Source: Crocinitomicaceae bacterium
GTDB lineage: Bacteria > Patescibacteriota > Minisyncoccia > Phycocordibacterales > UBA1006
Direction of reading: 5' to 3'
Assembly (NCBI GenBank): GCA_047637555.1
Contig: JBLIKX010000001.1
Coordinates: 8,294-72,293, forward strand
DNA: 64,000 nucleotides
Shown here piece by piece: positions 23,767 through 64,000 of the stretch; the stretch's first letter is position 1, and every line of letters begins with the position of its first letter. The notes under the pieces are model-generated. The model searched no databases, was not told where the DNA came from, and saw only the letters and a list, made by a program, of their open reading frames with translations. The position numbers were made by a program, and so were the translations under genes.

Positions 23767-26700
23767 ATGAATACACGAGAAAAAAAATATTTTTCAAAAT
23801 ATAAAGATCCATTGATTGAAATGCCAAACCTGGTTGAAAATCAAATTGAATCGTTTGAAAAATTTATGAACGGAGGCCTTCAAGAGTCAATTATGGAGTT
23901 CTCTCCAGTTATGGATTACTCAGAAAAGAAATTTGAATTAAATTTCTTGGAATTTTCAGTTGAAAATCCAGAATTTGACGAATACTATGCTCGAGAGAAT
24001 AAAAAAACCTATGAAGCCCGATTAAAGGCCAAGGTCTCTCTTTATAATAAAACACTGGATTCCACGAAAGAAGAAGAAATTTTCTTAACTGAAATTCCAT
24101 TCATGACACCTCATGGTACCTTTATTATTAATGGTATTGAGCGAGTTATTGTGCCTCAGTTAGCACGATCATATGGAGTATTCTTTACCATGGATGACCA
24201 TATTAAGGGTCCATTCTTTGGAGCTAAACTTATTCCTGCACGAGGGGCGTGGATTGAATTTGAATCTAACAAGGATGGAGCCATTTATGTTCGAATCGAT
24301 AAAAAACGTAAGTTTGCTGCAACAGCACTATTGCGTGTTTTTGGATTGGAAACAACCGAAGAAATACTTGAAGCTTTCAAACATGATGAAGTAGCGTACA
24401 AACAAGTTGAAGCAACCCTAGCAAAAGATACCTCATTAGATAAACAAGAAGCTTACGCTGATGTATATCGACGGATTAGAGACGGAGAAGTAGCATCACC
24501 CGATGCACTTGTTGAATATTTTGAAGCTATTTTTGGAGATACCTTATATGATATGTCAGAAGTAGGCCGATATCATTTCAATAAACGATTTGACAAAGAA
24601 CTTCCAAAGAAAGGAGTTTACGAGCAAACACTTCAAGTTGAAGATCTAGTTATTATAATGACAAAGATCGCTCATATGAACATTGACCCAACATCAAAGG
24701 CTGATGATATTGATCATCTTGGTTCAAGGCGTGTACGATTCGTAGGAGAATTGTTGGAGCAAAAGGTAAGACAAGCTCTTTCTCAAATGAAACGAAATAT
24801 TAGAGATAGAATGTCGACTGTTGATAATGATACGACAGGATCAATGACCTTGATTAACCAACGTCCATTCCAAGCTCGAATGAAAGAGTTTTTTGCGACA
24901 TCTCAATTGTCACAATATATGGATCAGGAAAACGCACTATCAGAAATTTCTCACTTGCGGACACTCTCTGCTCTTGGACCTGGAGGTCTTACGCGAGAGC
25001 GTGCTGGATTTGAGGTACGGGATGTTCACCCGTCTCATTATGGACGTGTATGTCCAATCCACACTCCAGAGGGACAAAATATTGGATTGATTCTGCGTAT
25101 GAGTGTTTATGCTCGAATTAATAATTTCGGAATGATCGAAGCTCCGTATGCGAAAGTTATTAAAGGAAAGGTTACAGGGGAAATTGAATATCTTAACGCA
25201 ATGGATGAGGAGAAATATAATATTGCCCATGCATCAAACCCATATGAAAAAAATGGTAAATTCACTAATGAAATTGTAGAGGCTCGTATTAAAACACGAC
25301 CAGGTATTTGTACGCGAGAAGATGTTGATTATATTGACGTTGCGACAAACGCAGCATTTTCAGTTGCAACATCATTGATTCCATTTTTGGAGGCTGATGA
25401 TGCAAATCGATCTCTTATGGGGTCAAACATGATGAAGCAAGCCGTACCATTGGTAGTTCCACAAGCTCCACTTGTTGGAACAGGTATGGAAGGAAAAGCG
25501 GCACTGGATACTGGTCGCGTGGTTATTTCACGTTCAAACGGAACAGTCGTTGAGTCAGATGGTAAGCATATTGTCGTTAAGGATTCAAAAGGAAATCTTG
25601 AAACATATAATTTAATTAACTTTATTCGAACGAATTCAAACTCATTCTTCCATCAACGGTCAATAGTTTCATCAGGTCAAAAAGTTAAAAAAGATGAAGT
25701 ACTCGCTGATACTTCCACAACAGAAGGAGGACAATTAGCTATTGGTCAAAATGTCCTTGTGGCATTTATGTGTTGGAATGGGCAAAACTTTGAGGATGCA
25801 ATCATTCTTTCAGAAAAACTTGTTAAGAACTCAATTTTTACTTCAATTCGAATTGATGAATACGAATGTGTTGTTCGTGATACAAAACTAGGAGAAGAAC
25901 AAACTACAACCGACATTCCAAACGTAGGAGAAGGAAAGCTTGGAAATCTTGATGAAGATGGAATTATCCGTGTTGGAGCATACGTAGGAGAAAACGATAT
26001 CCTCGTTGGTAAGGTTACACCAAAGGGTGAAACTGAACTTACACCAGAAGAAAAACTTTTACGATCAATTTTTGGAGAAAAATCACGAGATGTAAAAGAC
26101 ACATCCCTTCGCCTAGGATACGGAAAAAAAGGACGAATTATTGGGGTAAAAATATTCTCACGAGATGCAGGGCATAAACTTGAATCAGGAGTATTAAAGA
26201 AGGTTTATATTGAAATTGCACAACTACGAAATATCAAGGTTGGAGATAAACTTGCTGGACGTCACGGAAACAAAGGGGTTATTTCTATTGTTCTTCCAGA
26301 GGAAGATATGCCATACATGGCTGACGGAACACCTATTGATGTTATTTTGACGCCACTTGGAATTCCTTCACGTATGAACTTGGGACAAATTCTTGAAATG
26401 CATCTAGGGCTGGCAGCGGATGCTCTAGGTTACCAAGCAATTGTTCCTTCGTTTGCCGGAGCAACTGCTGATGAAATTGCAGAGGAACTTGAAAAGGCTG
26501 GATTCTCTGGTACAGGTAAGGTAACGCTCTTTGATGGTCGAACAGGAGAAAAGTTTGATCAAGATATTGCGGTTGGGTATATGTATATCTTGAAACTGCA
26601 CCACATGATCGATGACAAAATGCACGCGCGTTCAATCGGACCATACTCACTAATCACCCAACAACCTCTTGGTGGTAAGGCTCAATCTGGTGGACAACGA

Positions 26701-27006
26701 TTTGGAGAAATGGAGGTTTGGGCTCTTGAAGGATACGGAGCAGCGCATACCTTGCGTGAAATGTTAACCATTAAATCAGATGATGTCGTTGGTCGATCAG
26801 CTGCCTTTGATTCTATTATTAAAGGTCAAAAGATTACTCAACAGAATACACCTGCTTCATTTGAAGTGTTGGTAAATTATCTGAGAGGATTATGTCTTGA
26901 TGTTAATCTTGATATTATTCGAGAAAACAACCTTATTAGTATTGATGAAGATGCTGTTGTGGAAGTAGAAGCAACAGAGGTAATCTCAGAATCAGATAAC
27001 GCATAA
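23767..27006 (+). CDS. rpoB: DNA-directed RNA polymerase subunit beta
   Basis: 1079 aa; conserved beta-subunit blocks (GPGGLTRERAGFEVRDVH, rifampicin region, NMQRQA-like core). Confidence 0.97.
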   Translation: MNTREKKYFSKYKDPLIEMPNLVENQIESFEKFMNGGLQESIMEFSPVMDYSEKKFELNFLEFSVENPEFDEYYARENKKTYEARLKAKVSLYNKTLDSTKEEEIFLTEIPFMTPHGTFIINGIERVIVPQLARSYGVFFTMDDHIKGPFFGAKLIPARGAWIEFESNKDGAIYVRIDKKRKFAATALLRVFGLETTEEILEAFKHDEVAYKQVEATLAKDTSLDKQEAYADVYRRIRDGEVASPDALVEYFEAIFGDTLYDMSEVGRYHFNKRFDKELPKKGVYEQTLQVEDLVIIMTKIAHMNIDPTSKADDIDHLGSRRVRFVGELLEQKVRQALSQMKRNIRDRMSTVDNDTTGSMTLINQRPFQARMKEFFATSQLSQYMDQENALSEISHLRTLSALGPGGLTRERAGFEVRDVHPSHYGRVCPIHTPEGQNIGLILRMSVYARINNFGMIEAPYAKVIKGKVTGEIEYLNAMDEEKYNIAHASNPYEKNGKFTNEIVEARIKTRPGICTREDVDYIDVATNAAFSVATSLIPFLEADDANRSLMGSNMMKQAVPLVVPQAPLVGTGMEGKAALDTGRVVISRSNGTVVESDGKHIVVKDSKGNLETYNLINFIRTNSNSFFHQRSIVSSGQKVKKDEVLADTSTTEGGQLAIGQNVLVAFMCWNGQNFEDAIILSEKLVKNSIFTSIRIDEYECVVRDTKLGEEQTTTDIPNVGEGKLGNLDEDGIIRVGAYVGENDILVGKVTPKGETELTPEEKLLRSIFGEKSRDVKDTSLRLGYGKKGRIIGVKIFSRDAGHKLESGVLKKVYIEIAQLRNIKVGDKLAGRHGNKGVISIVLPEEDMPYMADGTPIDVILTPLGIPSRMNLGQILEMHLGLAADALGYQAIVPSFAGATADEIAEELEKAGFSGTGKVTLFDGRTGEKFDQDIAVGYMYILKLHHMIDDKMHARSIGPYSLITQQPLGGKAQSGGQRFGEMEVWALEGYGAAHTLREMLTIKSDDVVGRSAAFDSIIKGQKITQQNTPASFEVLVNYLRGLCLDVNLDIIRENNLISIDEDAVVEVEATEVISESDNA

Positions 27007-27011
27007 TTATT

Positions 27012-30000
27012 ATGAATACAACAGATACTATGAAAAAGATTCAACAAGAAAAACAGGTTTCAATCCGCTTGGCTTCACCGGAAAAAATTCGGTCATGGTC
27101 TCATGGTGAGGTAGCCAAGCCAGAAACAATTAACTATAGAACAGGTCGTTCTGAAAGGAATGGACTCTTTGATGAGAGAATTTTTGGTCCAGAAAAAGAT
27201 TACGAATGTTACTGTGGAAAATACAAAGGTATTCGTTATCGTGATATTGTATGTGAAAAATGTGGAGTTGAGGTAACACGAGCTATTGTCCGTCGTTCGC
27301 GAATGGGACACATTGGTTTGGCTTCACCCGTTGCCCATATTTGGTTCTTACGAGGGATACCATCACGAATGGGATTGGTACTTAACATACCTGTTTCAAA
27401 ACTAGAAAAAGTTATTTATTTTGCAAGTTACATCATTACTGATGTACACCAGGATGTAAAAGAAAATGTATTGAAGGAGTTGCAGCGAGAATACAAGGCA
27501 AAGCAAAAAACTCTTGAATCAGATGAAGACAAAGAGAAGTTGAAAGGTCTTTTTGATAAAACAAAAAAACAGATTCAAGATATTGTTCTTTATAGTGTTA
27601 TTTCTGAAGATGAATATAACATCTATTCACTAAAATTTGGTTCAATTTTTGAAGCAGGTATTGGTGCAGAAGCAATTTTTTACATCTTCAAGACACTTGA
27701 TCTAGATGTGATTGAGGTAGAGCTTGGAGCTGCAGTAAACGCTACAAAGTCAGTTGCTGTTCGAACAAAAATCGAAAAGCGACTTTCACTTTTACGGTCA
27801 CTTAATCGAGAAAATATCCGTCCAGAATGGATGTTCCTTGAAGTGATCCCAGTTATTCCTCCGGCTTTGCGACCTATGGTTGCTCTTGAAGGAGGACGAT
27901 ATGCAACATCTGATGTTAATGATCTATATCGACGTGTAATCAACCGAAATAATCGTTTGAAGAAACTCATGAAAATTGGAGCACCAGATGTAATTTTAAG
28001 AAACGAAAAACGTATTCTTCAAGAAGCATGTGATTCGCTTATTGATAATACTATTCGTAAGCATTCAGGAACGGTTGCCAAATCTTCATCACAAAAACGA
28101 AATCTTAAATCTCTTTCAGACCAGCTAAAGGGTAAGCAAGGTTTGTTCCGACAAAATCTTCTTGGTAAACGTGTAGATTATTCTGGGCGTTCTGTTATTG
28201 TTGTTGGTCCAAAACTAGGAATCGACCAATGTGGTATTCCTAAAAACATGGCACTTGAACTTTTCCGACCATTTGTTATTTCAAAGATTATTGATCGTGA
28301 AATGGCGTTTAATGTACGTGGAGCAGGAAAATTACTTGAATCACCAACAGACGAAATTTGGGATATTCTTGAAAATATTATTGATGGTAAATATGTTCTT
28401 TTAAACCGTGCCCCAACATTACACCGACTTTCAATCCGAGCATTCAAGCCAATTCTTATTGAAGGAAAAGCTATTCAGCTGCACCCACTTTCGGTTAACG
28501 GATTTAATGCGGACTTTGATGGAGATCAAATGGCCGTACATGTACCGCTTTCAGAAGAAGCACAATACGAAGCTAAAGAGCTTATGGCTGCAAGCAAAAA
28601 TTTATTGCGACCAGCATCAGGTGAACCAACGGTTGCTCCATCACAGGATATGGTTTTAGGAGTGTACTGGATGACCAAAGCCATTGAAGGAGCTTTAGGA
28701 GAAGGAAAGATTTTTTCATCACCAAACGAAGCTATTACTTGTTATGATTTTGACAAGGTAGATTTCCGAGCAAAAATTTACGTACTTCCAACAGATTCAT
28801 CACGATATGATGAATTCGAAGGAAAGCCATTTGAAACAACCGTAGGGCGACTATTATTTAATAGTATTATGCCTAGTGACTTTGGTTATTTGAATCAAGA
28901 CATTAAGAAGAAAGATATTTCAAAAATTATTGCACGATTAATTGAAAAATATGGTATTGCTGCAACAGCTCCTGTTGTTGATAAAATTAAAGACTTTGGA
29001 TTCAAATATGTAACCTTCTCTGGTTCAACATTTGGTTATTCAGATGCAATTATTCCAAAGGAAAAGCACGCTATTATTGACACTGGGCGAAAGGCGGCTT
29101 TAGAGATTCAAGGTCAATATGATGAAGGTCTTATCTCTGAACCAGAACGATATCGAAAAACTATCGAATTATGGGAAGGGGTTAAGGTTGAAGTTGAAAA
29201 GGTTATTGGAGAAAATCTTCATAAATCTGAATCAATTTACGACATGGTTACTTCTGGAGCTCGTGGTTCAACATCAAACATGTTGCAAATGGGTGGTATG
29301 AAGGGTGTTATTGTTAACGCATCAGGACGTGCGATTGATTTCCCAATTTTAAGTTCATATAAAGAAGGGCTTACACCTATTGAGTACTTTATTACAACTC
29401 ATGGATCGCGTAAGGGTCTTACTGATACGGCTCTAAAAACAGCTTCTGCTGGATACCTAACACGTCGACTTCATGATGTTGCTCAAGATGTTGTAGTAAC
29501 AGAAGAAGACTGTAAAACAAAGAAGCATATTATTGCGACTGATATTAATTATGATGGAATTATTAAACCGCTCTTGGAAAATATTCTTGGACGTGTTACA
29601 TCTTCAAAAATTGTCGATGCAAAAGGAGAGACAGTTCTCAAGAAGAACCATCTTATTACTCGTAATGATGCAGAGACAGTTGTTGCCGCTGGTATTACTG
29701 AGGTTGCAGTACGAACACCAATCAAATGTGATTCACTTCATGGTGTCTGCCAAAAATGTTACGGGCTTGATCTTGGGCGAAATGCTTTGGTTAAGGTTGG
29801 AGAAGCAGTAGGAACTATTGCTTCTCAATCAATTGGTGAGCCAGGAACACAACTAACACTTCGAACTTTCCACGCGGGAGGGGTTACAGGGTTAGATATT
29901 ACGACGGGTCTACCTCGTATTGAAGAGTTGTTTGAGAAACGTTCAAACATTAAATCACCAGCACTTATCTCTAAAACAGGAGGTCTTGTTGTTGATGTAA

Positions 30001-30707
30001 GAGAAAAGGAAGGTGTTAAGATTATTGAAGTATTATCTGATACTGAAATTACCGTTGGGGCAAATAAAACAAGAACGATTGAATATGCTCTTGATAAAAG
30101 ACGTACTCCTGTTGTAAAGAAAAATGACCGTGTAGAGGTTGGAGATCTGGTTACAGATGGTTCTGCAAGTATCGATGATTTATTTGATATTGCAGGTACT
30201 TCTCGTGCACAAGAGTATGTAATTTCTGAGGTAGCAAAAGTTTATGAATTAAACTCTGCACCAGTTTCAAAAAAACACATTGAAATTATTGCACGATTGA
30301 TGTTCTCTCGACGTAAAATTACTTCACCAGGAGATACAAAATTCTCAACAGGAGATGTTGTTGAATACATTGAACTTACTCAAGAGAATAACCTTGTAGA
30401 AGCTGAAGGAAAACTAGGAGCAAAAGCGGTAACCGTTGTAAAAGGTATCTCAGAGGTAGCTCTTTCAACTAAATCATGGTTATCATCTGCATCATTCCAA
30501 CATACCACTCGTATTTTGGTATCAGCAGCAGCAGGTGGAGAAATTGATGAATTGAGAGGTCTAAAAGAAAACGTTATTGTTGGAAATCTTATCCCAGCAG
30601 GAACTGGATTCAGAAATGATTTTATCTCGTTTGATAAAATGCCAGGACGAGTTCGAGCAGGAGAAATTAAATCTCTTGAGGCTGAACTTGGAGATAATAT
30701 TTCATAA
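27012..30707 (+). CDS. rpoC: DNA-directed RNA polymerase subunit beta'
   Basis: 1231 aa; zinc-finger CGKYK...C...C, the NADFDGDQM catalytic Asp triad, bridge-helix and trigger-loop blocks. Confidence 0.97.
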
Positions 30708-30720
30708 TTAAATCATTACC

Positions 30721-32463
30721 ATGAAAAACACCGACATCATTAAAGATAAATTGAATATCGTAGATGTGGTGGGATCATATGTAAAGCTTGAAAAGGCAGG
30801 AAAGACATACAAAGGAAAATCACCCTTTACTAATGAAAAAACCCCATCATTCTTTGTTTCACCAGAGAAGGGTTTTTTCTATTGTTTTTCAAGTGGTAAG
30901 GGTGGTGATATTTTTACTTTTGTCCAAGAAATTGAGCGCATCGAATTCCATGATGCACTTAAGTTACTTGCCGAAAAAGCAGGTATAAAGTTAGAATCAA
31001 ACGCTATTTCATTAGAAAAACATAATGAAACAACTATCCGATTCAAGGTTTTGGATGATATTACAAAATGGTATGAAATTAACTTGAGGAAAAACACTGA
31101 AGTAGTCGAGCATCTTTTAAAAAGAGGTCTTACCAAGGAAACAATCATTAAGTTTCGGCTTGGTTTTTCATTAGATGCATGGCGTGAATGTTATGAATAT
31201 CTTCATTCCCGAAAATATCGAGACCAAGACATCGAATCTGTCGGATTGATTATTAAAAAAGAAGGAAGTGGGTATTATGATCGATTTAGATCACGAATTA
31301 TGTTTCCTCTTATGGATGGGCGTGGACGAGTTGTTGGTTTTTCCGGACGTATATTTACTGATGATCCAGATACTCAGGGTGCCAAATACATCAATAGCCC
31401 AGAAGGTCCCTTGTTTGATAAATCAGAGGTTCTCTACGGCTATCACACAGCTAAGACATCAATGAGTAAGGAAGATGCATGTATTCTCGTAGAAGGACAG
31501 TTTGATGTAGTTATGGCTCAGCAGGCTGGATATATTCACACGGTAGCCATATCAGGAACAGGACTAACTGATCATCATATAAATATGATCAAACGTTTTA
31601 CTGATAACATCTTCCTGGCGCTTGATAGTGATAAGGCCGGAGTCAAAGCTACACGTCGAAGTGTTCTTGCCGCTTATCGGCACGGCATGCAGGTAAAAAT
31701 TATTATGATGCTTGATGGCATGGATCCAGCTGATACTATTGTTCATAGTAAAGAACAGTGGGATCTCTGTGTTCATGACTCAAAAGATTATATAGATTAT
31801 CGACTGGAATTATTCAATCGAGTAGATCACACCTTCGAAGAAAAAAAGAAACTTGTAGATACTGACCTTTTTACCTTTGTATATCTGATGAAAAGCTCAA
31901 TGGTCCAAGATAGGGTGTTGCAAAAATTAGCATTATTTTTAGGAGTAAGCATAGAGGCTGTACGAAATGATTTCACAAGTTTTAAACCTGATCAAGATGA
32001 TATTATTAAATCTGATAATCATTTTGTTTATACAAAGAATGTATCTCCGATATCTGAACGAGATATCAAAAGGGAAGTAGCGCTTATCACTCATTTTACA
32101 AAAGACCAAGACTACGAAATTGAACTTGAGATTCAGGCTCAAATTGAAGCTTTGTATAGCGAACTCTACGATGAAGAATTAAAGACTACCATCGCAGAGT
32201 TACCCGAAACTGAAAAAAACATGCAGTTGTTTATCTTACAAGATAAATACAAAGATACATCAGAAAAATCATTTGGATCTATGTTATTAACTATGTTGGC
32301 AGAAGAGAAAATACGTAGACTGGATAATCGCTCGGCACAGTTGCTTGAAGAAACTCGCCAGACAGAATCAAAAGCAGACGGAGAAAAACTGGCTGAATTA
32401 ACGGTTGAGCTTCAAAAAATACTTTTATTAAAAAAAGATTTAAAAAATCTTATTCAAAAATAA
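30721..32463 (+). CDS. dnaG: DNA primase DnaG (zinc-ribbon ligands degenerate)
   Basis: TOPRIM EGQFD...DSDKAG and RNA-polymerase-domain blocks are present; the N-terminal zinc-binding region reads KSPFTNEKTPSF...FYCFSSGKGG where canonical DnaG has CPFHxEKTPSF...YHCFGCG. Confidence 0.9.
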   Translation: MKNTDIIKDKLNIVDVVGSYVKLEKAGKTYKGKSPFTNEKTPSFFVSPEKGFFYCFSSGKGGDIFTFVQEIERIEFHDALKLLAEKAGIKLESNAISLEKHNETTIRFKVLDDITKWYEINLRKNTEVVEHLLKRGLTKETIIKFRLGFSLDAWRECYEYLHSRKYRDQDIESVGLIIKKEGSGYYDRFRSRIMFPLMDGRGRVVGFSGRIFTDDPDTQGAKYINSPEGPLFDKSEVLYGYHTAKTSMSKEDACILVEGQFDVVMAQQAGYIHTVAISGTGLTDHHINMIKRFTDNIFLALDSDKAGVKATRRSVLAAYRHGMQVKIIMMLDGMDPADTIVHSKEQWDLCVHDSKDYIDYRLELFNRVDHTFEEKKKLVDTDLFTFVYLMKSSMVQDRVLQKLALFLGVSIEAVRNDFTSFKPDQDDIIKSDNHFVYTKNVSPISERDIKREVALITHFTKDQDYEIELEIQAQIEALYSELYDEELKTTIAELPETEKNMQLFILQDKYKDTSEKSFGSMLLTMLAEEKIRRLDNRSAQLLEETRQTESKADGEKLAELTVELQKILLLKKDLKNLIQK

Positions 32464-32598: not shown

Positions 32599-33768
32599 AT
32601 GGCACCAAAAAAAATTACAAAAAAAATTACAAAAAAAAAGGTGGATCCTGTGCAAACTCATATTCAAGAGCAACGAGAAATTGAAGCTCGAGATAAAAAA
32701 GCAAAGGCCTTGGTTGAAAAAGGTAAAAAACGTCGTTTTTTAACTTATGCAGAAATCTTAAAGCAATTTCCAGATATTGAAGAGGATGTTATGTTTCTTG
32801 ATGAATTGTATGGGATGCTTGGTGATGCCGAGGTTGAAATTGTTGAAGGTGGAACCAGTTCTGGTGGTGGAGGAATGTTGGACATGACTGACGAGGAATT
32901 ACTGGAAAAAGATTTTGCGACTAAAAAACAACCAGAAACCAAAGATTCTATTCAAATGTATCTTCGTGAAATTGGTAAATATCCACTTATTAAGGCTGCA
33001 GAAGAAGTGTCTCTAGCAAAACGAATCGAATCTGGTGACGATGAAGCAAAAAACCTTCTTGCAAAGGCAAACCTACGTTTGGTAGTCTCGTTAGCTAAAA
33101 AATATGTTGGACGATCTCCAGATCTAACCCTGCTTGATTTAATTCAAGAAGGAAACATCGGATTATTTAAAGCTGTTGAAAAATTTGATTGGACTCGAGG
33201 ATACAAATTCTCAACATATGCAACATGGTGGATTCGTCAATCAATCACGCGGGCACTTGCTGATCAATCTCGAACGATTCGTATACCAGTTCATATGGTT
33301 GAAACAATTTCTAAATACAAACAGGTCTTCAAGCGAATGAGTCAGGGACTAGGTCGTGAGCCATTGCCCGAAGAAATTGCTTTAGAGATGGGTCTTGATG
33401 TTGAAAAGATTCATATGATTGGAAAGATTAACCAAACGACAATGTCACTCGAAGAACCTATTGGTTCAGATGGAGAAGAGAAATCTACGAGAGGTGAATT
33501 TATTGCAGACGAATCAATTCCCTCTCCTGATCGAGATTCTTCAAAAACTATTTTGAAAGATCAACTCCAAGAAATTTTAGATGAGTTAACTGAAAAAGAA
33601 CGAACGATTATTGAATTACGATATGGTCTTGTTGATGGTATCTCTCATACTCTGGAAGAGGTTGGTCGTAAGTTTGATGTTACGCGTGAACGTATACGTC
33701 AGATTGAGGCAAAAGTTCATGAAAAGATTAGGGTTAATGATAAGATTAAGAAGCTTCAAGATTACTAA
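32599..33768 (+). CDS. rpoD: RNA polymerase sigma factor RpoD (group 1 sigma-70)
   Basis: region 1.2 [11 protein letters not shown], region 2 [17 protein letters not shown]...[13 protein letters not shown], region 4 [21 protein letters not shown]. Confidence 0.9.
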
Positions 33769-43649: not shown

Positions 43650-43928
43650 TTATCCTTCAATAACTGAAACAACTTTTTTTATCTTAACGCTCCCGTTAAA
43701 ATGTTTTTTTCGAGTATGACTGAATTTTACAGTTCCTTCTTTTAAGGCGAACAATGTATGATCTTTTCCGATTCCTACATTAACTCCTGCCATGGTTTTT
43801 GTACCACGTTGTCGAACAATAATTGATCCAACTTGTGCTGATTGTCCGTCAGCTAGTTTCAATCCTAAATACTTTGGATTTGAATCTCGGAGGTTTTTTG
43901 CCGAACCACCGGCTTTCCTATGTGCCAT
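43650..43928 (-). CDS. rpmA: 50S ribosomal protein L27
   Basis: [24 protein letters not shown]...IIVRQRGTK signature. Confidence 0.9.
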
Positions 43929-43999
43929 ATATAATTACGAGTTCTTATAAACAAGAACCTTGTGTAGTATACTTAGTGTTAATAATAGAAAGCAGGATA

Positions 44000-44398
44000 A
44001 TGGGTCCTAACAATCAGAGTAACATGCGGATTATAAACAAAGTAAACAAAAAAATCAAGGACCTGGTACATCATAAATGGTTTGATGAGGTTTTGTGGGT
44101 TACCCTTATTATGTTTGTGGGACTTGGTATGTTTTCCTTTGGGGTAGTGTACCAACGCCATGCATATCTAGAGCGTAATCCTCTACTCATCGAATATTCT
44201 GATGAAGCAATTGCTTTATGGGAAACCTATCAAAATATTAAAACAGAGAACCAAGAATTCTTTGGCTCAAAGAATGGATCGATAGTCTATCCTGTTGGAT
44301 GTACAAAAGGAAATCGTATTAAAGAAGAGAATATAGTATTTTTTGGAAGTTTAAATGATGCAACTGAAAGAGGATATAAAAAAGTAGAAGGGTGTTAA
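44000..44398 (+). CDS. hypothetical membrane protein with a C-terminal Ada metal-binding-like domain (Cys ligands mostly absent)
   Basis: SIVYPVGCTKGNRIKEENIVFFGSLNDATERGYKK parallels the Ada_Zn_binding pattern (..Y.V.TTGIYCRPSC...ENV.FF.S...A...GFRPCKRC); the track ORF from 43823 begins with TTG and overlaps rpmA, so start ATG 44000 is used. Confidence 0.4.
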   Translation: MGPNNQSNMRIINKVNKKIKDLVHHKWFDEVLWVTLIMFVGLGMFSFGVVYQRHAYLERNPLLIEYSDEAIALWETYQNIKTENQEFFGSKNGSIVYPVGCTKGNRIKEENIVFFGSLNDATERGYKKVEGC

Positions 44399-50914: not shown

Positions 50915-51163
50915 ACTTATTGACGATGTTTTTTCCTCTTAAATCACTAAAATTATGATAGGAATAAAGATGAGTGGTTTGTATTTTAGGTTTTAAATAT
51001 TTATTTTTATCTTCTTATTTGAACCTAATTTCAGCTTACTGAGTAGTTCAATAATATTCCTTTTATTTACAATACTCATATAATTCTATTTTGTAAATAC
51101 CCCTTTCAAGGGTCTTGCTAATAATAATACTCTATGTTATCGTGACGGAAGTACAGATAAAAT

Positions 51164-52249
51164 TTGCGAATATATATTATGAAAAAAATACGAAAAATTA
51201 AACTAAACTTTAAACCACAAACCTCTTCAAAAAAACTTTTGAAAGGATTAAAAAATAGAGATCGTTATGTCCTTGAAAGTCGTTTTGGACTTGAAGACAT
51301 CAATAAAAAAACTTTAGAAGCTATTGGTCAAGAATATGATATTACACGAGAACGTGTCCGTCAAATTCAAGACGCTGCCTTAAAAGCCATTCGTAAATCT
51401 GATAATTATGAAGAAGCTCGAGAAGTTTTTGAAGAAATTGAAACAATGATAAACAATTTTGGTGGAGTTGTTTCTGAAGACCATTTTCTTGATCATACAC
51501 ATGAGGATGAATTAATTCAGAATCATATTCATTTTCATCTTGTTATAGGTGATACTTTTAAGAAGCACAAGGAAGATAAAAAATTCCGTGCTCGTTGGTC
51601 AGTAAATGGAGAATTAACTGACAAGGTTCACTCAGCATTAGAAAAACTACACGACCATGTAACTGACGAAGAACTTCTTTCGGAAGAACAAATGGTTCTA
51701 AAATTCCTCGATCGTTTAGATGGTGTTGAGGATGGTTATGTAGATAATGAGATTGCTCAGCAATTTCTTATGCTTTCAAAACTTGTGGCTAAAAATCCAC
51801 TTGGTGATTGGGGATTAACATCTTCACAAAATATTTCAGTTCGAGGTATTCGTGATTATGCCTACCTCATTATGAAAAAAAATGGTTCACCTATGCACTT
51901 TAGAGAAGTGGCTGAATCTATCACTGATACCTTTGATAAAAAAGCTCATCCTGCAACAACTCATAATGAGTTAATCAAAGATGACAGATTTGTTCTTGTT
52001 GGAAGAGGGATGTATGGATTGAAAGAATGGGGTTATCGATCAGGCGTTGTAAAAGATGTCATTCGAGACCTTATTGATGAGCGTGGTCCATTAGCAAAAG
52101 AAGAAATTATTGAATCTGTTCTCAAGGAACGATATCTGAAAGAAAATACTATTTTAGTAAATCTCTCTAATAAGGATTACTTTAAGAAGGACGAAGATGG
52201 AAAGTACGTTCTCGCTGAGGGAGCAAAGAAAAAACTTAAAAATAAGTAA
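51164..52249 (+). CDS. putative transcription factor: N-terminal sigma-70 region-4-like HTH plus C-terminal HARE-HTH (RNAP delta-like) domain
   Basis: N-terminus LESRFGLEDINKKTLEAIGQEYDITRERVRQIQDAALKAIRK closely parallels sigma-70 region 4.2 (compare rpoD in this window: [21 protein letters not shown]); C-terminus GSPMHFREVAESI...HPATTHNELIKDDRFVLVGRGMYGLKEWGY matches the HARE-HTH signature (PLHYKEI...TPEATM...RFV.VGRG.YGL.EW). Confidence 0.6.
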   Translation: MRIYIMKKIRKIKLNFKPQTSSKKLLKGLKNRDRYVLESRFGLEDINKKTLEAIGQEYDITRERVRQIQDAALKAIRKSDNYEEAREVFEEIETMINNFGGVVSEDHFLDHTHEDELIQNHIHFHLVIGDTFKKHKEDKKFRARWSVNGELTDKVHSALEKLHDHVTDEELLSEEQMVLKFLDRLDGVEDGYVDNEIAQQFLMLSKLVAKNPLGDWGLTSSQNISVRGIRDYAYLIMKKNGSPMHFREVAESITDTFDKKAHPATTHNELIKDDRFVLVGRGMYGLKEWGYRSGVVKDVIRDLIDERGPLAKEEIIESVLKERYLKENTILVNLSNKDYFKKDEDGKYVLAEGAKKKLKNK

Positions 52250-52251
52250 AC

Positions 52252-52280
52252 AAAAAAACATACTCTGTATGTTTTTTTGT
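52252..52280. terminator. rho-independent terminator after the HTH gene
   Basis: aaacatac-tct-gtatgttt followed by a T run. Confidence 0.7.
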
Positions 52281-52309
52281 TTTGTATATTAAAGTGATAC
52301 ACTAATGGT

Positions 52310-53518
52310 ATGAATGTAGTTATATCTGCAATAATTAATACAGCTTTTGTTTGGCTTCCTGTTATCTTAGGGGTTGTTTTTTGGAAAACATATCTTTCTT
52401 ATAAGCAGAAAGCTTTTTTGGGAAATATAACATATACCATGTTGGAAATCAGTATCCCTAGAAATGTCTATAAATCTCCACAAGCAATGGAGATCGTTAT
52501 TGATGTTCTTCATCATCTTGGTGGAGGAGCTATGGGTAAATATAATCGTATATGGGATGGCGCTGTCTTATATCCTTCATCGTTGGAGTTAGTATCTATC
52601 GAAGGAAAAATTTATTTCTTTATTAGATGTTCTGATAAATTAGCACGAACCGTAAAAACCGCTCTTTATTCACAATACCCTCAGGCTGAAATTAATGAAG
52701 TTGATGATTATACACGCTATGTGCCTAATTATAATTATCACCAAGACTCTTGGAGTTTATATGGAGCTGATTATAAACTAGCAAAGGATGATTTTATGCC
52801 AATTAAAACTTATATTGATTATGAGTTAGATAAAAATGTAGGCTCGTTAGATGAAGAACAGAAAATTGACCCTATTGCGCCACTATTAGAATATTTGGGA
52901 ACGATCAGGTCTGGTGAGCAAATATGGATTCAATTCATTGTGCGTGCTGATCAATTTACAACATGGAGATCTGAAGCTAAAAAATTTATTGAGGAAGTAA
53001 TGGGAAGAGGGAAGCCTATTTTGGATGATGAACCATTTACTACTGTTAAATTAACACATGCCGAGCAAGAACAAGTAAAGGCAATTGAAAGAAGTCTGTC
53101 AAAGTCTGCCTTCGAATGTACTGTGCGTGCCCTATATATGGCACGAAAAGAAAATGAAAATAAAGGAGTTAAGGGCTTTTTTAAGGGACCAATTTTTAAA
53201 GCTTTTAATTCTAATTATCTAAATGCATTTCGAAAAAATGAAGATACTACCTATGATTGGATTTGGCAGGATCTCACAGGATCACGCTATCCGATACTTC
53301 AAAGACGGTTTTTCAATGATTATGTTGAGCGTGCTGGTTTAAATGAAGGGTTCTTGAGGTATGTAAATTTCTTATGGTATAAACGTAATAAACCTATGGT
53401 TTTAACCAGTGAGGAATTAGCTACCCTGTTTCATATTCCTGGACGTGTATCTGAAACAACCGCTGTTGAGCGAATTGAAGCTACAAAATCAGAACCACCA
53501 ACAAACCTACCGATGTAA
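52310..53518 (+). CDS. hypothetical membrane-anchored protein (402 aa)
   Basis: N-terminal TM helix, aromatic-rich globular remainder, C-terminal LTSEELATLFHIPG motif; no nucleotide-binding motif. Confidence 0.45.
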   Translation: MNVVISAIINTAFVWLPVILGVVFWKTYLSYKQKAFLGNITYTMLEISIPRNVYKSPQAMEIVIDVLHHLGGGAMGKYNRIWDGAVLYPSSLELVSIEGKIYFFIRCSDKLARTVKTALYSQYPQAEINEVDDYTRYVPNYNYHQDSWSLYGADYKLAKDDFMPIKTYIDYELDKNVGSLDEEQKIDPIAPLLEYLGTIRSGEQIWIQFIVRADQFTTWRSEAKKFIEEVMGRGKPILDDEPFTTVKLTHAEQEQVKAIERSLSKSAFECTVRALYMARKENENKGVKGFFKGPIFKAFNSNYLNAFRKNEDTTYDWIWQDLTGSRYPILQRRFFNDYVERAGLNEGFLRYVNFLWYKRNKPMVLTSEELATLFHIPGRVSETTAVERIEATKSEPPTNLPM

Positions 53519-55601: not shown

Positions 55602-56453
55602 ATGAAAAAAAATAAAAATGCTAAAAAAGCAAGGCAAGCAAGAATTGCTCGAAAGCAAAGAATAGCAAATATTAATAAGCAGACAAGGCAGGCTAAAAAT
55701 CTTAAGAAACATATTATTCTTTCATACAAAATAGATGAACCTCGTATATTTAAGGTGCTTAAAGAAGAATTTAAAAAAGAATTTACTTCTAATGAATTCC
55801 CAGTAACAGTTACCTCATTAGGGGCGACAGATACTTCTCCTTACCCAAGAATTCAAGTTATATTTCGTTATTTATTATGGAAGCAAGAAGAAGTATTTAC
55901 TTTTTATATTACTGATAGTCCGAGGCTACTAGCATTTGTTGATGCTAATGCTTATGATGTATGGTACCAAATAGGTAAAATTCAAGATTTTCAAGATGAA
56001 AAGAAATTATCAAAAAAAATCCGAGAGATAATTATCTCAAAGAAAAAAGGGAGTAATACTGAATTTAAATTTCTTAAATTTCTGCAATCCGTTATTCCAA
56101 ATTATTTCGAGGTAAAATACGGAAGTAATTTAGATGGGTTAAATATTGATTTTTTTATAGCTAAAAAAGGATGCAAATTCGGCGAAGGTTTTCAAGTTAA
56201 AAGTTCATCTCTTTTTATAGATAGTGAAGGAAAAAAAATAGGTGAAGTAGTAAAAAACTCTTTTCTCCTCATTAAGGATAAAGTTCCTAAACCTATAAAT
56301 GCAGATTATGAATATGCTATTAATGATATCCATACTGTTTATTTAGATAAAAAGACTTTTATTTTACGTGATGGTTTCGGAGACCGCCCCGCAGAACCCA
56401 CTATTTTAGAATTAATTTCTAAACTGGAATCTGAATATTCGAAAACAAACTAA
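55602..56453 (+). CDS. hypothetical protein with a basic N-terminus; possible PD-(D/E)xK-like nuclease core (speculative)
   Basis: GLNIDFFIAKKG...EGFQVK could correspond to D...(E/Q)xK; otherwise no motif. Confidence 0.35.
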   Translation: MKKNKNAKKARQARIARKQRIANINKQTRQAKNLKKHIILSYKIDEPRIFKVLKEEFKKEFTSNEFPVTVTSLGATDTSPYPRIQVIFRYLLWKQEEVFTFYITDSPRLLAFVDANAYDVWYQIGKIQDFQDEKKLSKKIREIIISKKKGSNTEFKFLKFLQSVIPNYFEVKYGSNLDGLNIDFFIAKKGCKFGEGFQVKSSSLFIDSEGKKIGEVVKNSFLLIKDKVPKPINADYEYAINDIHTVYLDKKTFILRDGFGDRPAEPTILELISKLESEYSKTN

Positions 56454-62729: not shown

Positions 62730-64000
62730 ATGAAAAAATCTGGTCGAAAAAAAAATATAGATGGCATTTCATTGCGAAAAAAAAGAACGAGAGCAACTCG
62801 TTCTTTTCATAAAGCAAAGCCGGCTGTAAAAATACCTCTTAATGTATCTACAAAACCAATTACTCGAAGAAGAGATTTAAATATAAAACTCTTCTCTCGC
62901 AAGGAATTACTAAAAAACACACCTCTATATATTTCAAAAGAAGTACTCCCTAGAAGAAACAGGCAGATAAAGAAAAAAATTATTCACACTATTGACAAGG
63001 TTTTCAATCATAAAATCACTTCTTTATTTATTAAGATAATTATTGTGGTTGCTGCTATTTTCATTTTTTTTAATAATCGAGACAGAACTACAATGACCGT
63101 TCGGCCACATTATCAGTACCTTGAGTTATCAGAGTTAATTAAGGTATATAAAAACCCAAAGGAAGGAGATTTAGGTTTTGATATCATTGCTATAACTGAA
63201 GAGGTAACATCTTCGGTAATAGCAGACGAAGAACGCCCAATGCTGGTTAAATCTTCAGGCGAAATAATTATTTATAATAATTATAGTACAGAACCTCAAC
63301 GATTGATTCCTGAGACGCGCTTCAAAACGGCGGGAGGAAAGATTTTTTTCTTAGGAAAGGAAGAAGTAATTATCCCTGGTAAGGTAGGTGATAACATAGG
63401 TAGTACTACGGCTATTGTATATGCAGAAAAAGCAGGGGAACAATATAATATAGATACTACCGATTTTAGCGTTCCAGGTTTTAAGGAGTCTGGATTGATT
63501 GATAAGTATAATGGAATATATGCAGTCTCTACACAAATGATGGAAGGGGGGTTCATTGGGAGTGAAGCATATGTTTCTGAAAATGAACGTTTAAAGGCAG
63601 AACAAGCATTAAGCATAGATCTTGTTGATCGACTCCGCAGTAGACTTAATAGGGAAAAAACAGAGAATACTTTCTTAGTAGAGGGGAGTGAAAAGTATAG
63701 GTTTAAAGAGTCAGAATACCTTTCAGATGCTCTTGGTTCTGCGGGTGTATTATCCCAACGGGGAACTATTCTCGCTATTGTTGTAGGTAATAAATTCCTA
63801 GGTGAATACATTGCAGATAATTATTTTGAAATAAGTGATACTGAAAGTGTTAAGATGTTACAGTATGATGATGCACGCTTAACACTCAATAATAATACTT
63901 TTGATTTTGAGAATAGTGATATTGCCGAAATTAATGTTTCAGGTTCACTTCTTTATGTATGGAACATTAATAAAGAGTCATTAGCAAATAACATAACAAA
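62730..64000 (+). CDS. hypothetical bitopic membrane protein, 3'-partial (runs off the window)
   Basis: ATG at 62730, basic ~100-aa N-terminus, one TM helix (IKIIIVVAAIFIFF), then a long extracytoplasmic domain with no stop before 64000; absent from the track, probably because it is incomplete. Confidence 0.45.
   Translation, partial: MKKSGRKKNIDGISLRKKRTRATRSFHKAKPAVKIPLNVSTKPITRRRDLNIKLFSRKELLKNTPLYISKEVLPRRNRQIKKKIIHTIDKVFNHKITSLFIKIIIVVAAIFIFFNNRDRTTMTVRPHYQYLELSELIKVYKNPKEGDLGFDIIAITEEVTSSVIADEERPMLVKSSGEIIIYNNYSTEPQRLIPETRFKTAGGKIFFLGKEEVIIPGKVGDNIGSTTAIVYAEKAGEQYNIDTTDFSVPGFKESGLIDKYNGIYAVSTQMMEGGFIGSEAYVSENERLKAEQALSIDLVDRLRSRLNREKTENTFLVEGSEKYRFKESEYLSDALGSAGVLSQRGTILAIVVGNKFLGEYIADNYFEISDTESVKMLQYDDARLTLNNNTFDFENSDIAEINVSGSLLYVWNINKESLANNIT

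Follow-up and report, generated by a model that had tools for sequence, protein, structure and literature searches.

A conserved Patescibacteria protein joining a sigma-70 region 4 domain to four winged helices: a candidate transcription factor at -35 boxes

Introduction

Bacterial fusions of HARE-HTH domains to sigma-factor HTHs were reportedly noted in 2012 in a computational study by Aravind and Iyer in Cell Cycle (11:119), together with fusions to the C-terminal HhH of the RNA polymerase (RNAP) alpha subunit. For the fusions with sigma HTHs, that study and the text of the Pfam entry PF05066 are said to predict a delta-like inhibition of RNAP binding. To our knowledge, the 2012 description does not contain the spread throughout the ultra-small Patescibacteria (CPR), the layout of four winged helices, the synteny with DUF8128 and an ATPase, or the essentiality that are described below. 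The delta subunit of RNAP is dispensable in B. subtilis. Lineage-specific essential transcription factors are RbpA and CarD in Actinobacteria and GrgA in Chlamydia, and we know of no copy of sigma region 4 (sigma4) in any of the three. The Patescibacteria represent a large share of bacterial diversity, and their gene regulation is almost unstudied. The Saccharibacteria are now genetically tractable.

Delta is composed of an N-terminal HARE domain and a long polyanionic disordered tail, which displaces nucleic acids and has a charge of about -47 in B. subtilis. In delta, the partner of the HARE domain is RNAP beta' and not DNA (PMC7749165); it docks between the shelf and the jaw. Pull-downs showed that the HARE-HTH of ASXL1 is sufficient for binding to duplex DNA (PMC6591016). 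Recognition of modified DNA has been proposed for HARE-HTH fused to restriction enzymes, and ASXL1 binds 6mA DNA (PMC10853773, PMC6591016).

In this work, one gene in a 64,000-nucleotide stretch of DNA (the window) was analysed. The initial annotation had read its product as a fusion of a sigma4-type HTH to a HARE-HTH at the very C-terminus, with about 200 unrecognised residues between them, and had guessed at an RNAP-associated regulator or a sigma-mimic. As a whole, this observation was partly confirmed and the interpretation partly supported.

Results

The ORF 51164..52249 on the + strand, from which the initial annotation started, is confirmed. The likely start is ATG 51179 (356 aa) rather than TTG 51164, because the gene callers on matching contigs (those with a DUF8128 product identical to that of the window) give 356 aa and the homologs align from MKK. 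The features of the locus are summarized in Table 1. Both proposed domains passed the HMM check. Sigma70_r4 of Pfam covers aa 20-73 (47.6 bits with a cutoff of 24.1; E=1.2e-12), and Pfam HARE-HTH matches aa 226-284 just over the threshold (E=5.6e-6, 27.1 bits against 25.9). The HARE-HTH ends about 70 aa short of the C-terminus and is followed by a further winged helix, so that its supposed position at the very C-terminus does not hold. The middle region showed no significant Pfam match, yet the AF2 model of the whole protein (pLDDT 89.3, pTM 0.73) folds it into two winged-helix units. Since the middle consists of two degenerate winged helices, the protein is composed of sigma4 and four winged helices (WH1 to WH4, WH3 being the HARE-HTH).

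Table 1. Features of the locus (positions in the window)
Feature	Position	Strand	Description
Putative promoter	51115..51142	+	-35-like TTGCTA (51115-51120), 14-nt spacer, extended -10-like TGTTATCG (51135-51142)
CDS, 356 aa and stop	51179..52249	+	Sigma4, then four winged-helix domains; from the ORF, gene callers and full-length homologs; likely start
Sigma-70 region 4 domain, aa 13-74	51215..51400	+	Recognition helix TRERVRQI at aa 56-63
Winged helix 1, aa 76-142	51404..51604	+	From AF2 secondary structure; poorly conserved; acidic in the window protein
Winged helix 2, aa 143-215	51605..51823	+	From AF2; poorly conserved; acidic in the window protein
Winged helix 3 (HARE-HTH), aa 222-287	51842..52039	+	Contains the Pfam HARE-HTH match; best-conserved part of the protein
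Winged helix 4, aa 288-347	52040..52219	+	From AF2; conserved and basic throughout the family
Terminator-like palindrome	52248..52282		16 bp perfect (3 G-C pairs), loop of 3, flanking T-runs; overlaps the stop codon
DUF8128 (PF26449) gene, 402 aa	52310..53518	+	N-terminal membrane helix; VirB4-N-terminal-domain-like fold; conserved partner

The architecture had been supposed to be uncharacterised, and as regards experiments this is the case. No curated full-length family was found, and NCBIfam gave just partial sigma matches far under cutoff. A sequence search of the PDB turned up no structure past the sigma4 part. No functional study of the sigma4-HARE family was found, and a literature text search for Patescibacteria and sigma factor found nothing relevant.

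The RpoD of the window is encoded at 32599-33768, with Pfam r1.1, r1.2, r2, r3 and r4 all present; rpoB is located at 23767-27006 and rpoC at 27012-30707. The N-terminus of the protein shows 40% identity (69% positives) to region 4 of this RpoD over 58 aa (E=2e-10). The two had been called nearly superimposable; the homology stands, whereas near-identity does not. Residues 17-81 align with residues 544-608 of E. coli sigma70, and the group-1 type to which the domain belongs occurs throughout the bacteria. In this alignment, sigma70 R554, R562, T572, T583, R584, E585, R586, R588 and Q589, which are the established -35-contacting residues reported by Campbell et al. in 2002, fall on residues invariant in 22 homologs. 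The helix TRERVRQIE is more than 90% conserved in 143 representatives clustered at 50% identity, and the family mean charge of sigma4 is +4.8. The fold matches that of solved sigma4 domains in complex with -35 DNA or the beta-flap (31-47% identity). It superposes on the sigma4/beta-flap-tip chimeras 8d5v, 7kug, 7kuf and 6ido with TM values of 0.5-0.7 (32-47% identity). In having a region 4 HTH of the -35-recognising type, the protein agrees with the sigma-70 family.

According to the AF2 model, the HARE-HTH is composed of the elements H224-235, H241-252, H258-267, E271-275 and E278-281 with pLDDT >85, and these form a winged helix-turn-helix. This fold and the score above the gathering cutoff place the domain in the PF05066 superfamily. 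Other family members score 32.9-40.5 bits, and the core motif is P.HF...T.HNELIKD.RFVLVGRG.Y.L.EWGY. The mean identity to the query is 58% for the HARE (50%-clustered representatives) and 46% for WH4, and the family mean charge is +5.1 for each. According to the family means, sigma4, HARE and WH4 are the best-conserved and basic parts, and WH1 and WH2 are neither. In the window protein, the net charge is -8 for WH1 and -10 for WH2. Profile-profile comparison by hhalign gave probabilities of 72-93% for the related pairs: 93% for WH4 and HARE, 91% for WH2 and WH4, 76% for WH1 and WH2, and 72% for WH1 and WH4. WH2 matched the HARE just weakly, and WH1 did not match it in hhalign.

Several known identities were considered and rejected. 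Pfam finds Sigma70_r4 as the sole sigma domain and does not detect sigma region 2. NCBIfam sigma models match by their region-4 end alone, and the best of them score 47-57 bits where the cutoffs are 350-800. Sigma70_r3 gave no match in nine diverse middle regions even at E<=10. A sigma factor, or RpoS in particular, was ruled out by the undetected regions 2 and 3 in these Pfam, NCBIfam and middle-region searches. A middle of the sigma region-3 type is not supported, in view of the missing Sigma70_r3 match, the beta-strands in the AF2 model and the hhalign links of WH1 to WH2 and WH4. The NCBIfam RNAP delta model TIGR04567 (RNAP_delt_lowGC) aligns with aa 226-285 at 33.7 bits, under its cutoff of 42. 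The best PDB match of the HARE profile is RNAP delta (8x6g_E), which is not significant (E=0.1). A true RNAP delta subunit was ruled out by the score under the cutoff and by the missing acidic tail. Thus, since sigma regions 2 and 3 and an acidic tail are all missing, the protein is not a sigma factor, and it is not RNAP delta either. A defence-system or phage protein was also rejected, because PADLOC and PHROGs match at the sigma4 part alone. The PADLOC model MZA MzaA matches with 33.6 bits at profile positions 603-675 of 683, which is the sigma region-4 end alone. The DUF8128 protein gave no PADLOC match.

The family comprises 726 clusters at 50% identity (profile search, E<=1e-30), and nearly all members have 330-390 aa. 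For nearly all full-length matches among the close homologs, the identity is 54-92% across 91-100% of the query. Both Sigma70_r4 and HARE-HTH are present in nearly all homologs (PF05066 precomputed). The window protein belongs to this family by its full-length collinear match and by both Pfam domains at the same positions. Full-length members are found in many Patescibacteria classes. The few filed under other phyla are taken to be mis-binned contigs, and in the remaining non-Patescibacteria loci the match is confined to region 4. The family is apparently restricted to Patescibacteria and is a hallmark of this phylum. The identity between classes is 30-55%, and many residues are invariant inside one class.

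The counterpart in Southlakia epibionticum, SEML1_0294 (349 aa), has PF04545 at 27-72, PF05066 at 225-283 and a similar multi-domain split. DPAM assigns its residues 216-285 to the 'winged' ECOD domain e7f75L1. Its residues 6-155 are called 'tri-helical' by DPAM, which was one of the hints at a middle of the sigma region-3 type. From the architecture and the synteny, rather than from a sequence alignment, we infer that SEML1_0294 is the ortholog of the window gene. Its essentiality is already known as a listing: in the Tn-seq analysis, it is core, Patescibacteria-enriched and essential (ES/ES/ES; Wang et al. 2023, Table S1). The insertions numbered 24 in the input DNA and 1-2 after selection (Wang et al. 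2023 tables). SEML1_0294 is labelled 'RNA polymerase sigma factor RpoS', and the 'sigma' annotations of S. epibionticum are just RpoD and SEML1_0294 (Wang et al. 2023, Table S1); the main text of that paper does not mention SEML1_0294. The 'RpoS' label is a mis-annotation, which apparently leaves S. epibionticum with a single true sigma factor.

The promoter candidate of the window was picked up with a relaxed pattern; under a stricter sigma70 scan, the window gave no + strand promoter before the gene. Among 61 related loci, 44 have TTGAC-N14-17-TGnTA upstream of the gene. TTGAC is located within 160 nt upstream in 60 of the 61, and in 22% of the other intergenic regions of the same loci. By comparison with these loci, the window candidate is a putative degenerate form of the promoter conserved in the relatives. 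In five loci, a second TTGAC is located 10-12 bp upstream of the -35, and the excess of such extra boxes is about two-fold by rough estimate. Of 48 related loci, roughly 25 have a hairpin of at least 9 bp with a T-rich tail in the stretch up to the next gene, mostly soon past the stop codon.

Of the 60 informative loci, which come from very divergent CPR classes, 56 have the DUF8128 gene downstream in the same orientation, directly adjoining in nearly all, and the window follows this arrangement. The downstream gene is usually without a consensus promoter of its own. The gene had been described as monocistronic with a terminator. The terminator-like hairpin was found, but the monocistronic state is doubtful in view of this conserved partner, which usually has no recognisable promoter. 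In three clearly Saccharibacteria-type loci, DUF8128 is fused to a type IV secretion system (T4SS) coupling-protein-like ATPase, and in about 24 other loci such an ATPase is the very next gene. This ATPase is TrwB/TraD/VirD4-like and has a TraG-D_C ('TraM recognition site') match. It is not adjacent in the window and its closest relatives, and it was not found in the 64 kb. In S. epibionticum, the coupling-protein-like SEML1_0293 is non-essential and SEML1_0294 is essential (Wang et al. 2023 tables). The upstream genes vary (LeuRS, SecDF, UvrA), and the conservation is limited to the downstream module. No sigma2-like partner was found in the conserved neighbourhood. At one locus (P0145), SecF is fused to the family protein, which looks like a gene-call artefact. 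At another (P0135), AAA_14 is joined to WH2-HARE-WH4.

Discussion

Our preferred reading, which we hold tentatively, makes the protein a Patescibacteria-specific transcription factor that binds DNA at -35 boxes, is essential and probably abundant, and is neither sigma nor delta. The N-terminal group-1-type sigma4 would read the -35-type TTGACA in duplex DNA, as the housekeeping sigma does. The basic conserved HARE and WH4 would make a second contact, with neighbouring DNA or with RNAP, and the variable acidic-to-neutral WH1 and WH2 would serve as a spacer or a protein-interaction module. Occupancy of -35 boxes, or of a box one helical turn upstream, would tune the access of the sigma-A holoenzyme to -35-dependent promoters. 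The factor's own unusually consensus promoter would be among the targets, giving autoregulation, and read-through from this strong promoter past a leaky terminator would give low expression of the module of DUF8128 and the coupling-protein-like ATPase. DNA binding, TTGACA specificity, an effect on transcription and autoregulation are what we infer from the data above. The consensus promoter may instead reflect high expression alone.

Several points stand against this reading. The window's own promoter is degenerate (TTGCTA). Filling of every -35 box would be global repression, which fits oddly with essentiality. Occupancy of -35 boxes leaves the deep synteny with the membrane DUF8128 protein and the coupling-protein-like ATPase unexplained. 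The nearest solved relative of the HARE, by a weak match, is delta, whose HARE domain binds beta' and not DNA.

The guess of an RNAP-associated regulator or a sigma-mimic is plausible, and the invariant -35-contact residues appear to favour direct DNA binding at least as strongly. One form of it is possible, though unlikely: an accessory subunit bound to core or elongating RNAP, with sigma4 on the beta-flap tip helix in competition with region 4 of sigma-A and the HARE on beta'. It would act on the polymerase, in recycling, sigma exchange or anti-sigma-like control, and not as a free DNA-binding factor. The superposition of sigma4 on the beta-flap-tip chimeras, the relation of the HARE to delta in the PDB and NCBIfam comparisons, and the delta-like inhibition that the PF05066 text reportedly predicts for such fusions point in this direction. 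Essentiality, spread over the whole lineage, good conservation and a strong promoter would also suit a stoichiometric RNAP factor. However, flap docking does not need the invariant -35 DNA-contact residues, neither delta match reaches its threshold, and an intact region 4 is already present in the RpoD of the window. The acidic C-terminal region, which in delta carries the nucleic-acid-displacing activity (PMC7749165), is also absent. The conserved neighbourhood suggests another role, which we consider quite unlikely: an adaptor or regulator that brings specific DNA as a substrate to the DUF8128/coupling-protein-like membrane translocase in DNA transfer, uptake or segregation. The relaxosome accessory proteins, which contact both DNA and the coupling protein, would be one parallel, and the gamma domain of FtsK, a winged helix, another. 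The conserved downstream DUF8128 gene, the ATPase fused to it or next to it, the usual lack of a consensus promoter before the downstream gene, and the several basic winged-helix modules, which fit DNA handling, agree with such an adaptor. On the other side, SEML1_0293 is non-essential while SEML1_0294 is essential, and therefore the ATPase cannot by itself account for the essential role. The two genes often have a terminator between them, the ATPase is missing near the gene in the closest relatives and throughout the window, and homology to known relaxosome accessory proteins is lacking.

A secreted effector, which would pass through the CPR type IV secretion system and hijack the RNAP or the -35 elements of the host, is very improbable. 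The gene adjoins a coupling-protein-like gene, and a group-1-type sigma4 is present across bacteria. The CPR in cultivation live as epibionts, and Tn-seq in co-culture scores the genes required to exploit the host as essential (PMC10633639). Against an effector, the conservation between classes is at the housekeeping level, unlike that of fast-evolving effectors, the adjoining coupling-protein-like gene is non-essential, no obvious secretion signal was noticed in passing, and the promoter pattern suggests constitutive high expression. It is likewise very improbable that the protein is an alternative sigma that has diverged or degenerated, or that it supplies the sigma4 half of a split, two-subunit sigma, in spite of the Sigma70_r4 domain and the 'RpoS' annotation (Prokka) in S. 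epibionticum. Two-subunit sigmas are known, and SigO-RsoA of B. subtilis and gp55/gp33 of phage T4 provide a precedent. However, sigma regions 2 and 3 are undetected, the NCBIfam sigma models reach the region-4 end alone, and the middle folds as winged helices in AF2 with no Sigma70_r3 match. A sigma2-like partner is also missing from the conserved neighbourhood, and the 'sigma' entries for S. epibionticum in Table S1 offer RpoD as the only other one.

A phylum-wide essential copy of the -35-reading module of sigma thus stands out as a candidate for a core transcription factor specific to the lineage, or for a global regulator. A bolder proposal, to which we give little weight, is that an essential second -35 reader exists in Patescibacteria: a trans-acting sigma4 paralog with a delta-like winged-helix array, which would be a phylum-defining general transcription factor, stoichiometric with RNAP or promoters. 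Such a reader may physically tie promoter DNA or RNAP to the membrane DUF8128 protein and the coupling-protein-like ATPase. If this is true, a major bacterial branch initiates transcription with a component that lacks a counterpart in model organisms. An explicit predicted motif (TTGACA) and candidate partners (beta-flap, beta' and DUF8128/ATPase) make the question directly testable. The result would also mend an error that recurs in annotations ('RpoS', 'sigma factor-like') and inflates the sigma-factor counts of CPR genomes.

In comparison with known systems, the group-1 sigma-70 (RpoD/SigA) region 4 is a homologous domain, with the -35-contacting residues and the beta-flap-tip-binding fold in common. 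Unlike in RpoD/SigA, sigma4 is N-terminal here and stands alone, without regions 1.2, 2 and 3, and four winged helices follow it. Because regions 1.2, 2 and 3 are absent, the protein cannot bind core via sigma2 or melt the -10 element. RNAP delta (RpoE, Bacillota) is, as here, a lineage-specific protein of the transcription sphere with a HARE-type winged helix. In contrast to delta, the HARE is internal and basic and lies between other winged helices, and the C-terminus is a folded WH4 with a short lysine-rich tail. Delta of B. subtilis is dispensable, whereas SEML1_0294 of S. epibionticum is essential. The fusions of the 2012 study reportedly hold a sigma-type HTH and a HARE-HTH in one bacterial protein, as here; the alpha-CTD HhH and the sigma region-3 HTH were undetectable by Pfam searches in the window protein. 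The C-terminal 270 aa align in Foldseek with multi-winged-helix arrays (8b9x, E=3.6e-4; 2xub, 2uwm and 5msn). The tandem arrays of RPC62 of RNA polymerase III, SelB WH2-4, UFL1/DDRGK1 and Dcc1 resemble the window protein in architecture; at TM values of 0.16-0.35 and identities of 10-17%, this is an architectural likeness and gives no evidence of common descent or function. RbpA, CarD and GrgA show no homology to the protein, and their targets are sigma2, the beta lobe or DNA that lies upstream of the -10. Like these three, the protein belongs to one phylum, is essential and is built of small DNA- or RNAP-binding modules, and it would act at most promoters.

Gene and domain structure

The open reading frame reported in the initial annotation is present. 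According to gene callers, contigs matching the window, whose DUF8128 protein agrees exactly with that of the window, carry a 356-residue product, and the alignment of 21 homologs begins at the methionine of ATG 51179; this ATG is therefore the likely start. In the Pfam search, Sigma70_r4 matches residues 20–73 (E = 1.2e-12; 47.6 bits, cutoff 24.1), and HARE-HTH (PF05066) matches residues 226–284 (E = 5.6e-6; 27.1 bits, cutoff 25.9), the latter being marginal for the window protein. The N-terminus is 40% identical and 69% similar to region 4 of the window's real RpoD over 58 residues (E = 2e-10). What the initial annotation saw in the sequence thus stands, except for the position of HARE and the account of the middle region. 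PF05066 is annotated (precomputed) on nearly all homologs and other family members score 33–40 bits; the HARE assignment holds for the family.

The AlphaFold2 model, for which 22 homologs were used, has high confidence (pLDDT 89.3, pTM 0.73). In it, a helical sigma4 domain precedes four helix-helix-helix-hairpin units (WH1–WH4). HARE-HTH is the third of these units (WH3), and not the last 70 residues, where the domain had been placed. The middle 200 residues were said to match nothing, and WH1 and WH2 have no significant match in Pfam, including Sigma70_r3. Profile-profile comparison was performed with sub-alignments taken from 143 diverse family members. HARE matches WH4 (93%), WH2 matches WH4 (91%), and WH1 matches WH2 (76%) and WH4 (72%); WH2 matches HARE weakly (10%), and no match was found between WH1 and HARE. 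The model units and these matches indicate that the middle region consists of two degenerate winged helices.

Residues 17–81 align to residues 544–608 of E. coli sigma70, with spans equal in length. Nine family-invariant residues correspond to sigma70 residues: R27 (R554), R35 (R562), T45 (T572), T56 (T583), R57 (R584), E58 (E585), R59 (R586), R61 (R588) and Q62 (Q589). It is with these residues that sigma4 touches the -35 hexamer, as was reportedly established structurally by Campbell et al. in 2002. Conservation of the helix TRERVRQIE exceeds 90%, even in the set of representatives clustered at 50% identity. In the window protein, WH1 (net charge -8) and WH2 (-10) are markedly acidic; this strong acidity belongs to the window lineage and is not family-wide. 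By analogy with sigma region 1.1 and the delta tail, the acidic stretch could be a DNA mimic or an autoinhibitory element.

Features of the sigma4-HARE gene and its surroundings (window positions unless noted; identity, mean to query; charge, family mean)
Feature	Position	Strand	Remarks
Presumed rpoB	23767–27006	+	large ORF, identity presumed
Presumed rpoC	27012–30707	+	large ORF, identity presumed
dnaG	30721–32463	+	directly after presumed rpoB/rpoC
rpoD	32599–33768	+	regions 1.1, 1.2, 2, 3, 4
ORF	43823–44398	+	no Pfam match
Putative promoter, degenerate	51115–51142	+	TTGCTA-N14-TGTTATCG
sigma4-HARE ORF	51164–52249	+	likely start ATG 51179, 356 aa
sigma4	aa 13–74		identity 45%, charge +4.8
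WH1	~aa 76–142		identity 23%, charge -2.5
WH2	~aa 143–215		identity 21%, charge 0
WH1 + WH2 (aa 76–215)	51404–51823	+	acidic stretch
WH3 (HARE-HTH)	~aa 222–287		identity 58%, charge +5.1
WH4	~aa 288–347		identity 46%, charge +5.1
Terminator-like palindrome	52248–52282		16 bp perfect, T-runs flanking
DUF8128 gene	52310–53518	+	402 aa, N-terminal membrane helix
ORF	55602–56453	+	no Pfam match
ORF	63296–63811	-	no Pfam match
DUF8128–ATPase fusion	L048: 7085–9775
Coupling-protein-like ATPase	L038: 8669–10738

The three ORFs without a Pfam match encode 171–283 residues, and the one at 55602 is also called on matching contigs, without a Pfam match on record. The dnaG–rpoD adjacency is also found in Southlakia epibionticum (SEML1_0062/0063).

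Distribution

The word-indexed search with the sigma4-HARE protein gave at least 8000 matches. The top matches, 340–380 residues long, come from Paceibacteria, Nomurabacteria and "Patescibacteria group" bacteria and go by the names hypothetical, "HTH domain-containing" or "sigma factor-like helix-turn-helix DNA-binding protein". When 1.84 billion representatives were searched exhaustively with a profile, 726 clusters reached E ≤ 1e-30, almost all of them 330–390 residues long and matched over their full length. Among one-genome-per-species contigs, full-length matches were found in Paceibacteria/Parcubacteria, Saccharibacteria, Gracilibacteria and Peribacteria, and in Doudna-, Uhr-, Falkow-, Buchanan-, Kaiser-, Niyogi- and Taylorbacteria. 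Loci of other phyla are for the most part ordinary sigma factors that match residues 18–85 only; the few full-length records filed under Thermodesulfobacteriota and Planctomycetota are probably mis-binned contigs of Patescibacteria (CPR). Binning or annotation problems were seen in two protein records (P0270, P0093), one related locus (L015) and the S. epibionticum counterpart SEML1_0294, and an exact copy of the window's DUF8128 protein is filed in a 'Crocinitomicaceae bacterium' MAG. A 327-residue metagenomic protein (P0135) joins an AAA_14 ATPase to WH2-HARE-WH4 (profile positions 144–345) without sigma4.

Promoter, terminator and downstream genes

In relatives, the gene's promoter comes exceptionally near to consensus. 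TTGAC is present within 160 nt upstream of the gene in 60 of 61 related loci, and the full TTGAC-N14-17-TGnTA (consensus -35 and extended -10) in 44 of 61, against TTGAC in just 22% of other intergenic regions of 60–600 nt in the same loci. Five loci (L003, L009, L010, L013, L043) have a second TTGAC 10–12 bp upstream of the -35, which may be a candidate autoregulatory site for a sigma4-type reader. The terminator proposed after the gene was located as a perfect palindrome with T-runs, and a hairpin of at least 9 bp with a T-rich tail follows the gene in roughly 25 of 48 loci. Of 44 spacers between the gene and the DUF8128 gene, only 6 contain TTGAC and one a full promoter. The unit would be strongly expressed, and attenuated read-through would supply the DUF8128 module. 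Thus, "monocistronic" is only half right.

Homologs of the downstream product carry PF26449 (DUF8128); the window protein has no match in the Pfam or NCBIfam copies searched. Of 64 related loci, 55 have the DUF8128 gene downstream in the same orientation, directly adjoining in nearly all. Four loci truncated right after the sigma4-HARE gene were left out and match-less loci were re-searched by tblastn, which added DUF8128 and the ATPase in L056; the partner is thus present in 56 of 60 informative loci. Neither DUF8128 nor ATPase was found within 6 kb downstream in L054, L057, L058 and L059. These only clear synteny breaks are an oral code-25-type lineage, one Saccharibacterium, one Peribacterium and one Gracilibacterium. 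The upstream genes show no conservation across the related loci.

In the three clearly Saccharibacteria-type loci (L048, L050, L055), DUF8128 and a P-loop ATPase form one fused protein, and the ATPase is the very next gene in about 24 others. Because it matches TrwB_AAD_bind, T4SS-DNA_transf, TraG-D_C and DUF87, the ATPase is likened to the T4SS coupling protein; a treble-clef zinc finger is also present in the two stand-alone versions. The predicted fold of DUF8128 is VirB4-N-terminal-domain-like or EccE-like. DUF8128 and the ATPase together look like a chromosomal, CPR-wide, split VirB4-NTD plus VirD4-like ATPase. YceG/MltG follows instead of the ATPase in the window and in the relatives nearest to it, and no coupling-protein-like ATPase was found within the 64-kb window.

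Counterpart in Southlakia epibionticum

Prokka gives SEML1_0294 (1050 bp) the name "RNA polymerase sigma factor RpoS"; its listed domains are PF04545 at 27–72, PF05066 at 225–283, and DPAM domains at 6–155 (tri-helical) and at 156–215, 216–285 and 286–345 (winged) (Wang et al. 2023, Cell 186:4803, PMC10633639, Table S2). From the architecture, length and synteny, we infer that it is orthologous to the window gene. It is flagged as a core, Patescibacteria-enriched family and called ES/ES/ES: the mutagenised input DNA had 24 insertions, of which 1, 1 and 2 were counted post-selection (Table S1). The adjoining downstream SEML1_0293 (921 residues, T4SS coupling-protein-like, P-loop 361–795) is core and enriched, yet non-essential (PMC10633639). 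The main text of that paper does not discuss either gene. RpoD and SEML1_0294 are the only "sigma" annotations in this genome (PMC10633639); the name 'RpoS' inflates sigma-factor counts.

Possible function

Lacking regions 2 and 3, the sigma4-HARE protein cannot be a sigma factor, and a split or degenerate sigma is very improbable. The protein is not RNAP delta either, since the delta model scores 33.7 bits, short of its cutoff of 42, and the acidic tail, in which delta's activity resides (PMC7749165), is absent. We tentatively favour an abundant, essential -35-box-binding factor acting at promoters and probably controlling its own promoter. The strict retention of the -35 contact residues argues that sigma4 would bind TTGACA-like DNA, as docking to the flap alone needs none of them. 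The same point speaks against a sigma4 mimic that sits on RNAP through a delta-like anchor, which we consider unlikely. The HARE-HTH of ASXL1 binds duplex DNA (PMC6591016), so HARE and WH4, both basic and highly conserved, could plausibly bind nucleic acid as a second unit. In delta, however, the HARE-type fold binds beta' (PMC7749165).

The synteny with DUF8128 and the ATPase would suit a DNA adaptor for that module. This role is rather improbable; it is weakened by the ATPase being dispensable while the sigma4-HARE gene is not. A secreted anti-host effector is hardly to be expected. The protein is real, matters to the organism and lends itself to experimental tests, with a function that we infer.

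Comparison with known systems

The initial annotation did not recall this architecture as characterised, and no curated family, solved structure or functional study was found for the protein. Aravind and Iyer reportedly described, in 2012, fusions that join HARE-HTH to HTHs of sigma factors and to the C-terminal domain of alpha, with delta-like inhibition predicted, and the Pfam text of PF05066 gives the same fusions and prediction. The sigma-HTH/HARE fusion itself is probably not a first sighting. Neither alpha-CTD nor a region-3 HTH is detectable in the sigma4-HARE protein. As far as we can tell, the layout of sigma4 with four winged helices, the linkage to DUF8128 and the ATPase across CPR, the consensus promoter conserved among relatives and the tie to Tn-seq essentiality had not been brought together before. 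We would class the family with lineage-specific promoter- or RNAP-associated HTH factors. It is most closely related to sigma region 4, whose homology to the N-terminal domain is clear, and to the HARE-HTH superfamily, of which delta is the nearest solved member, matched weakly (E = 0.1).
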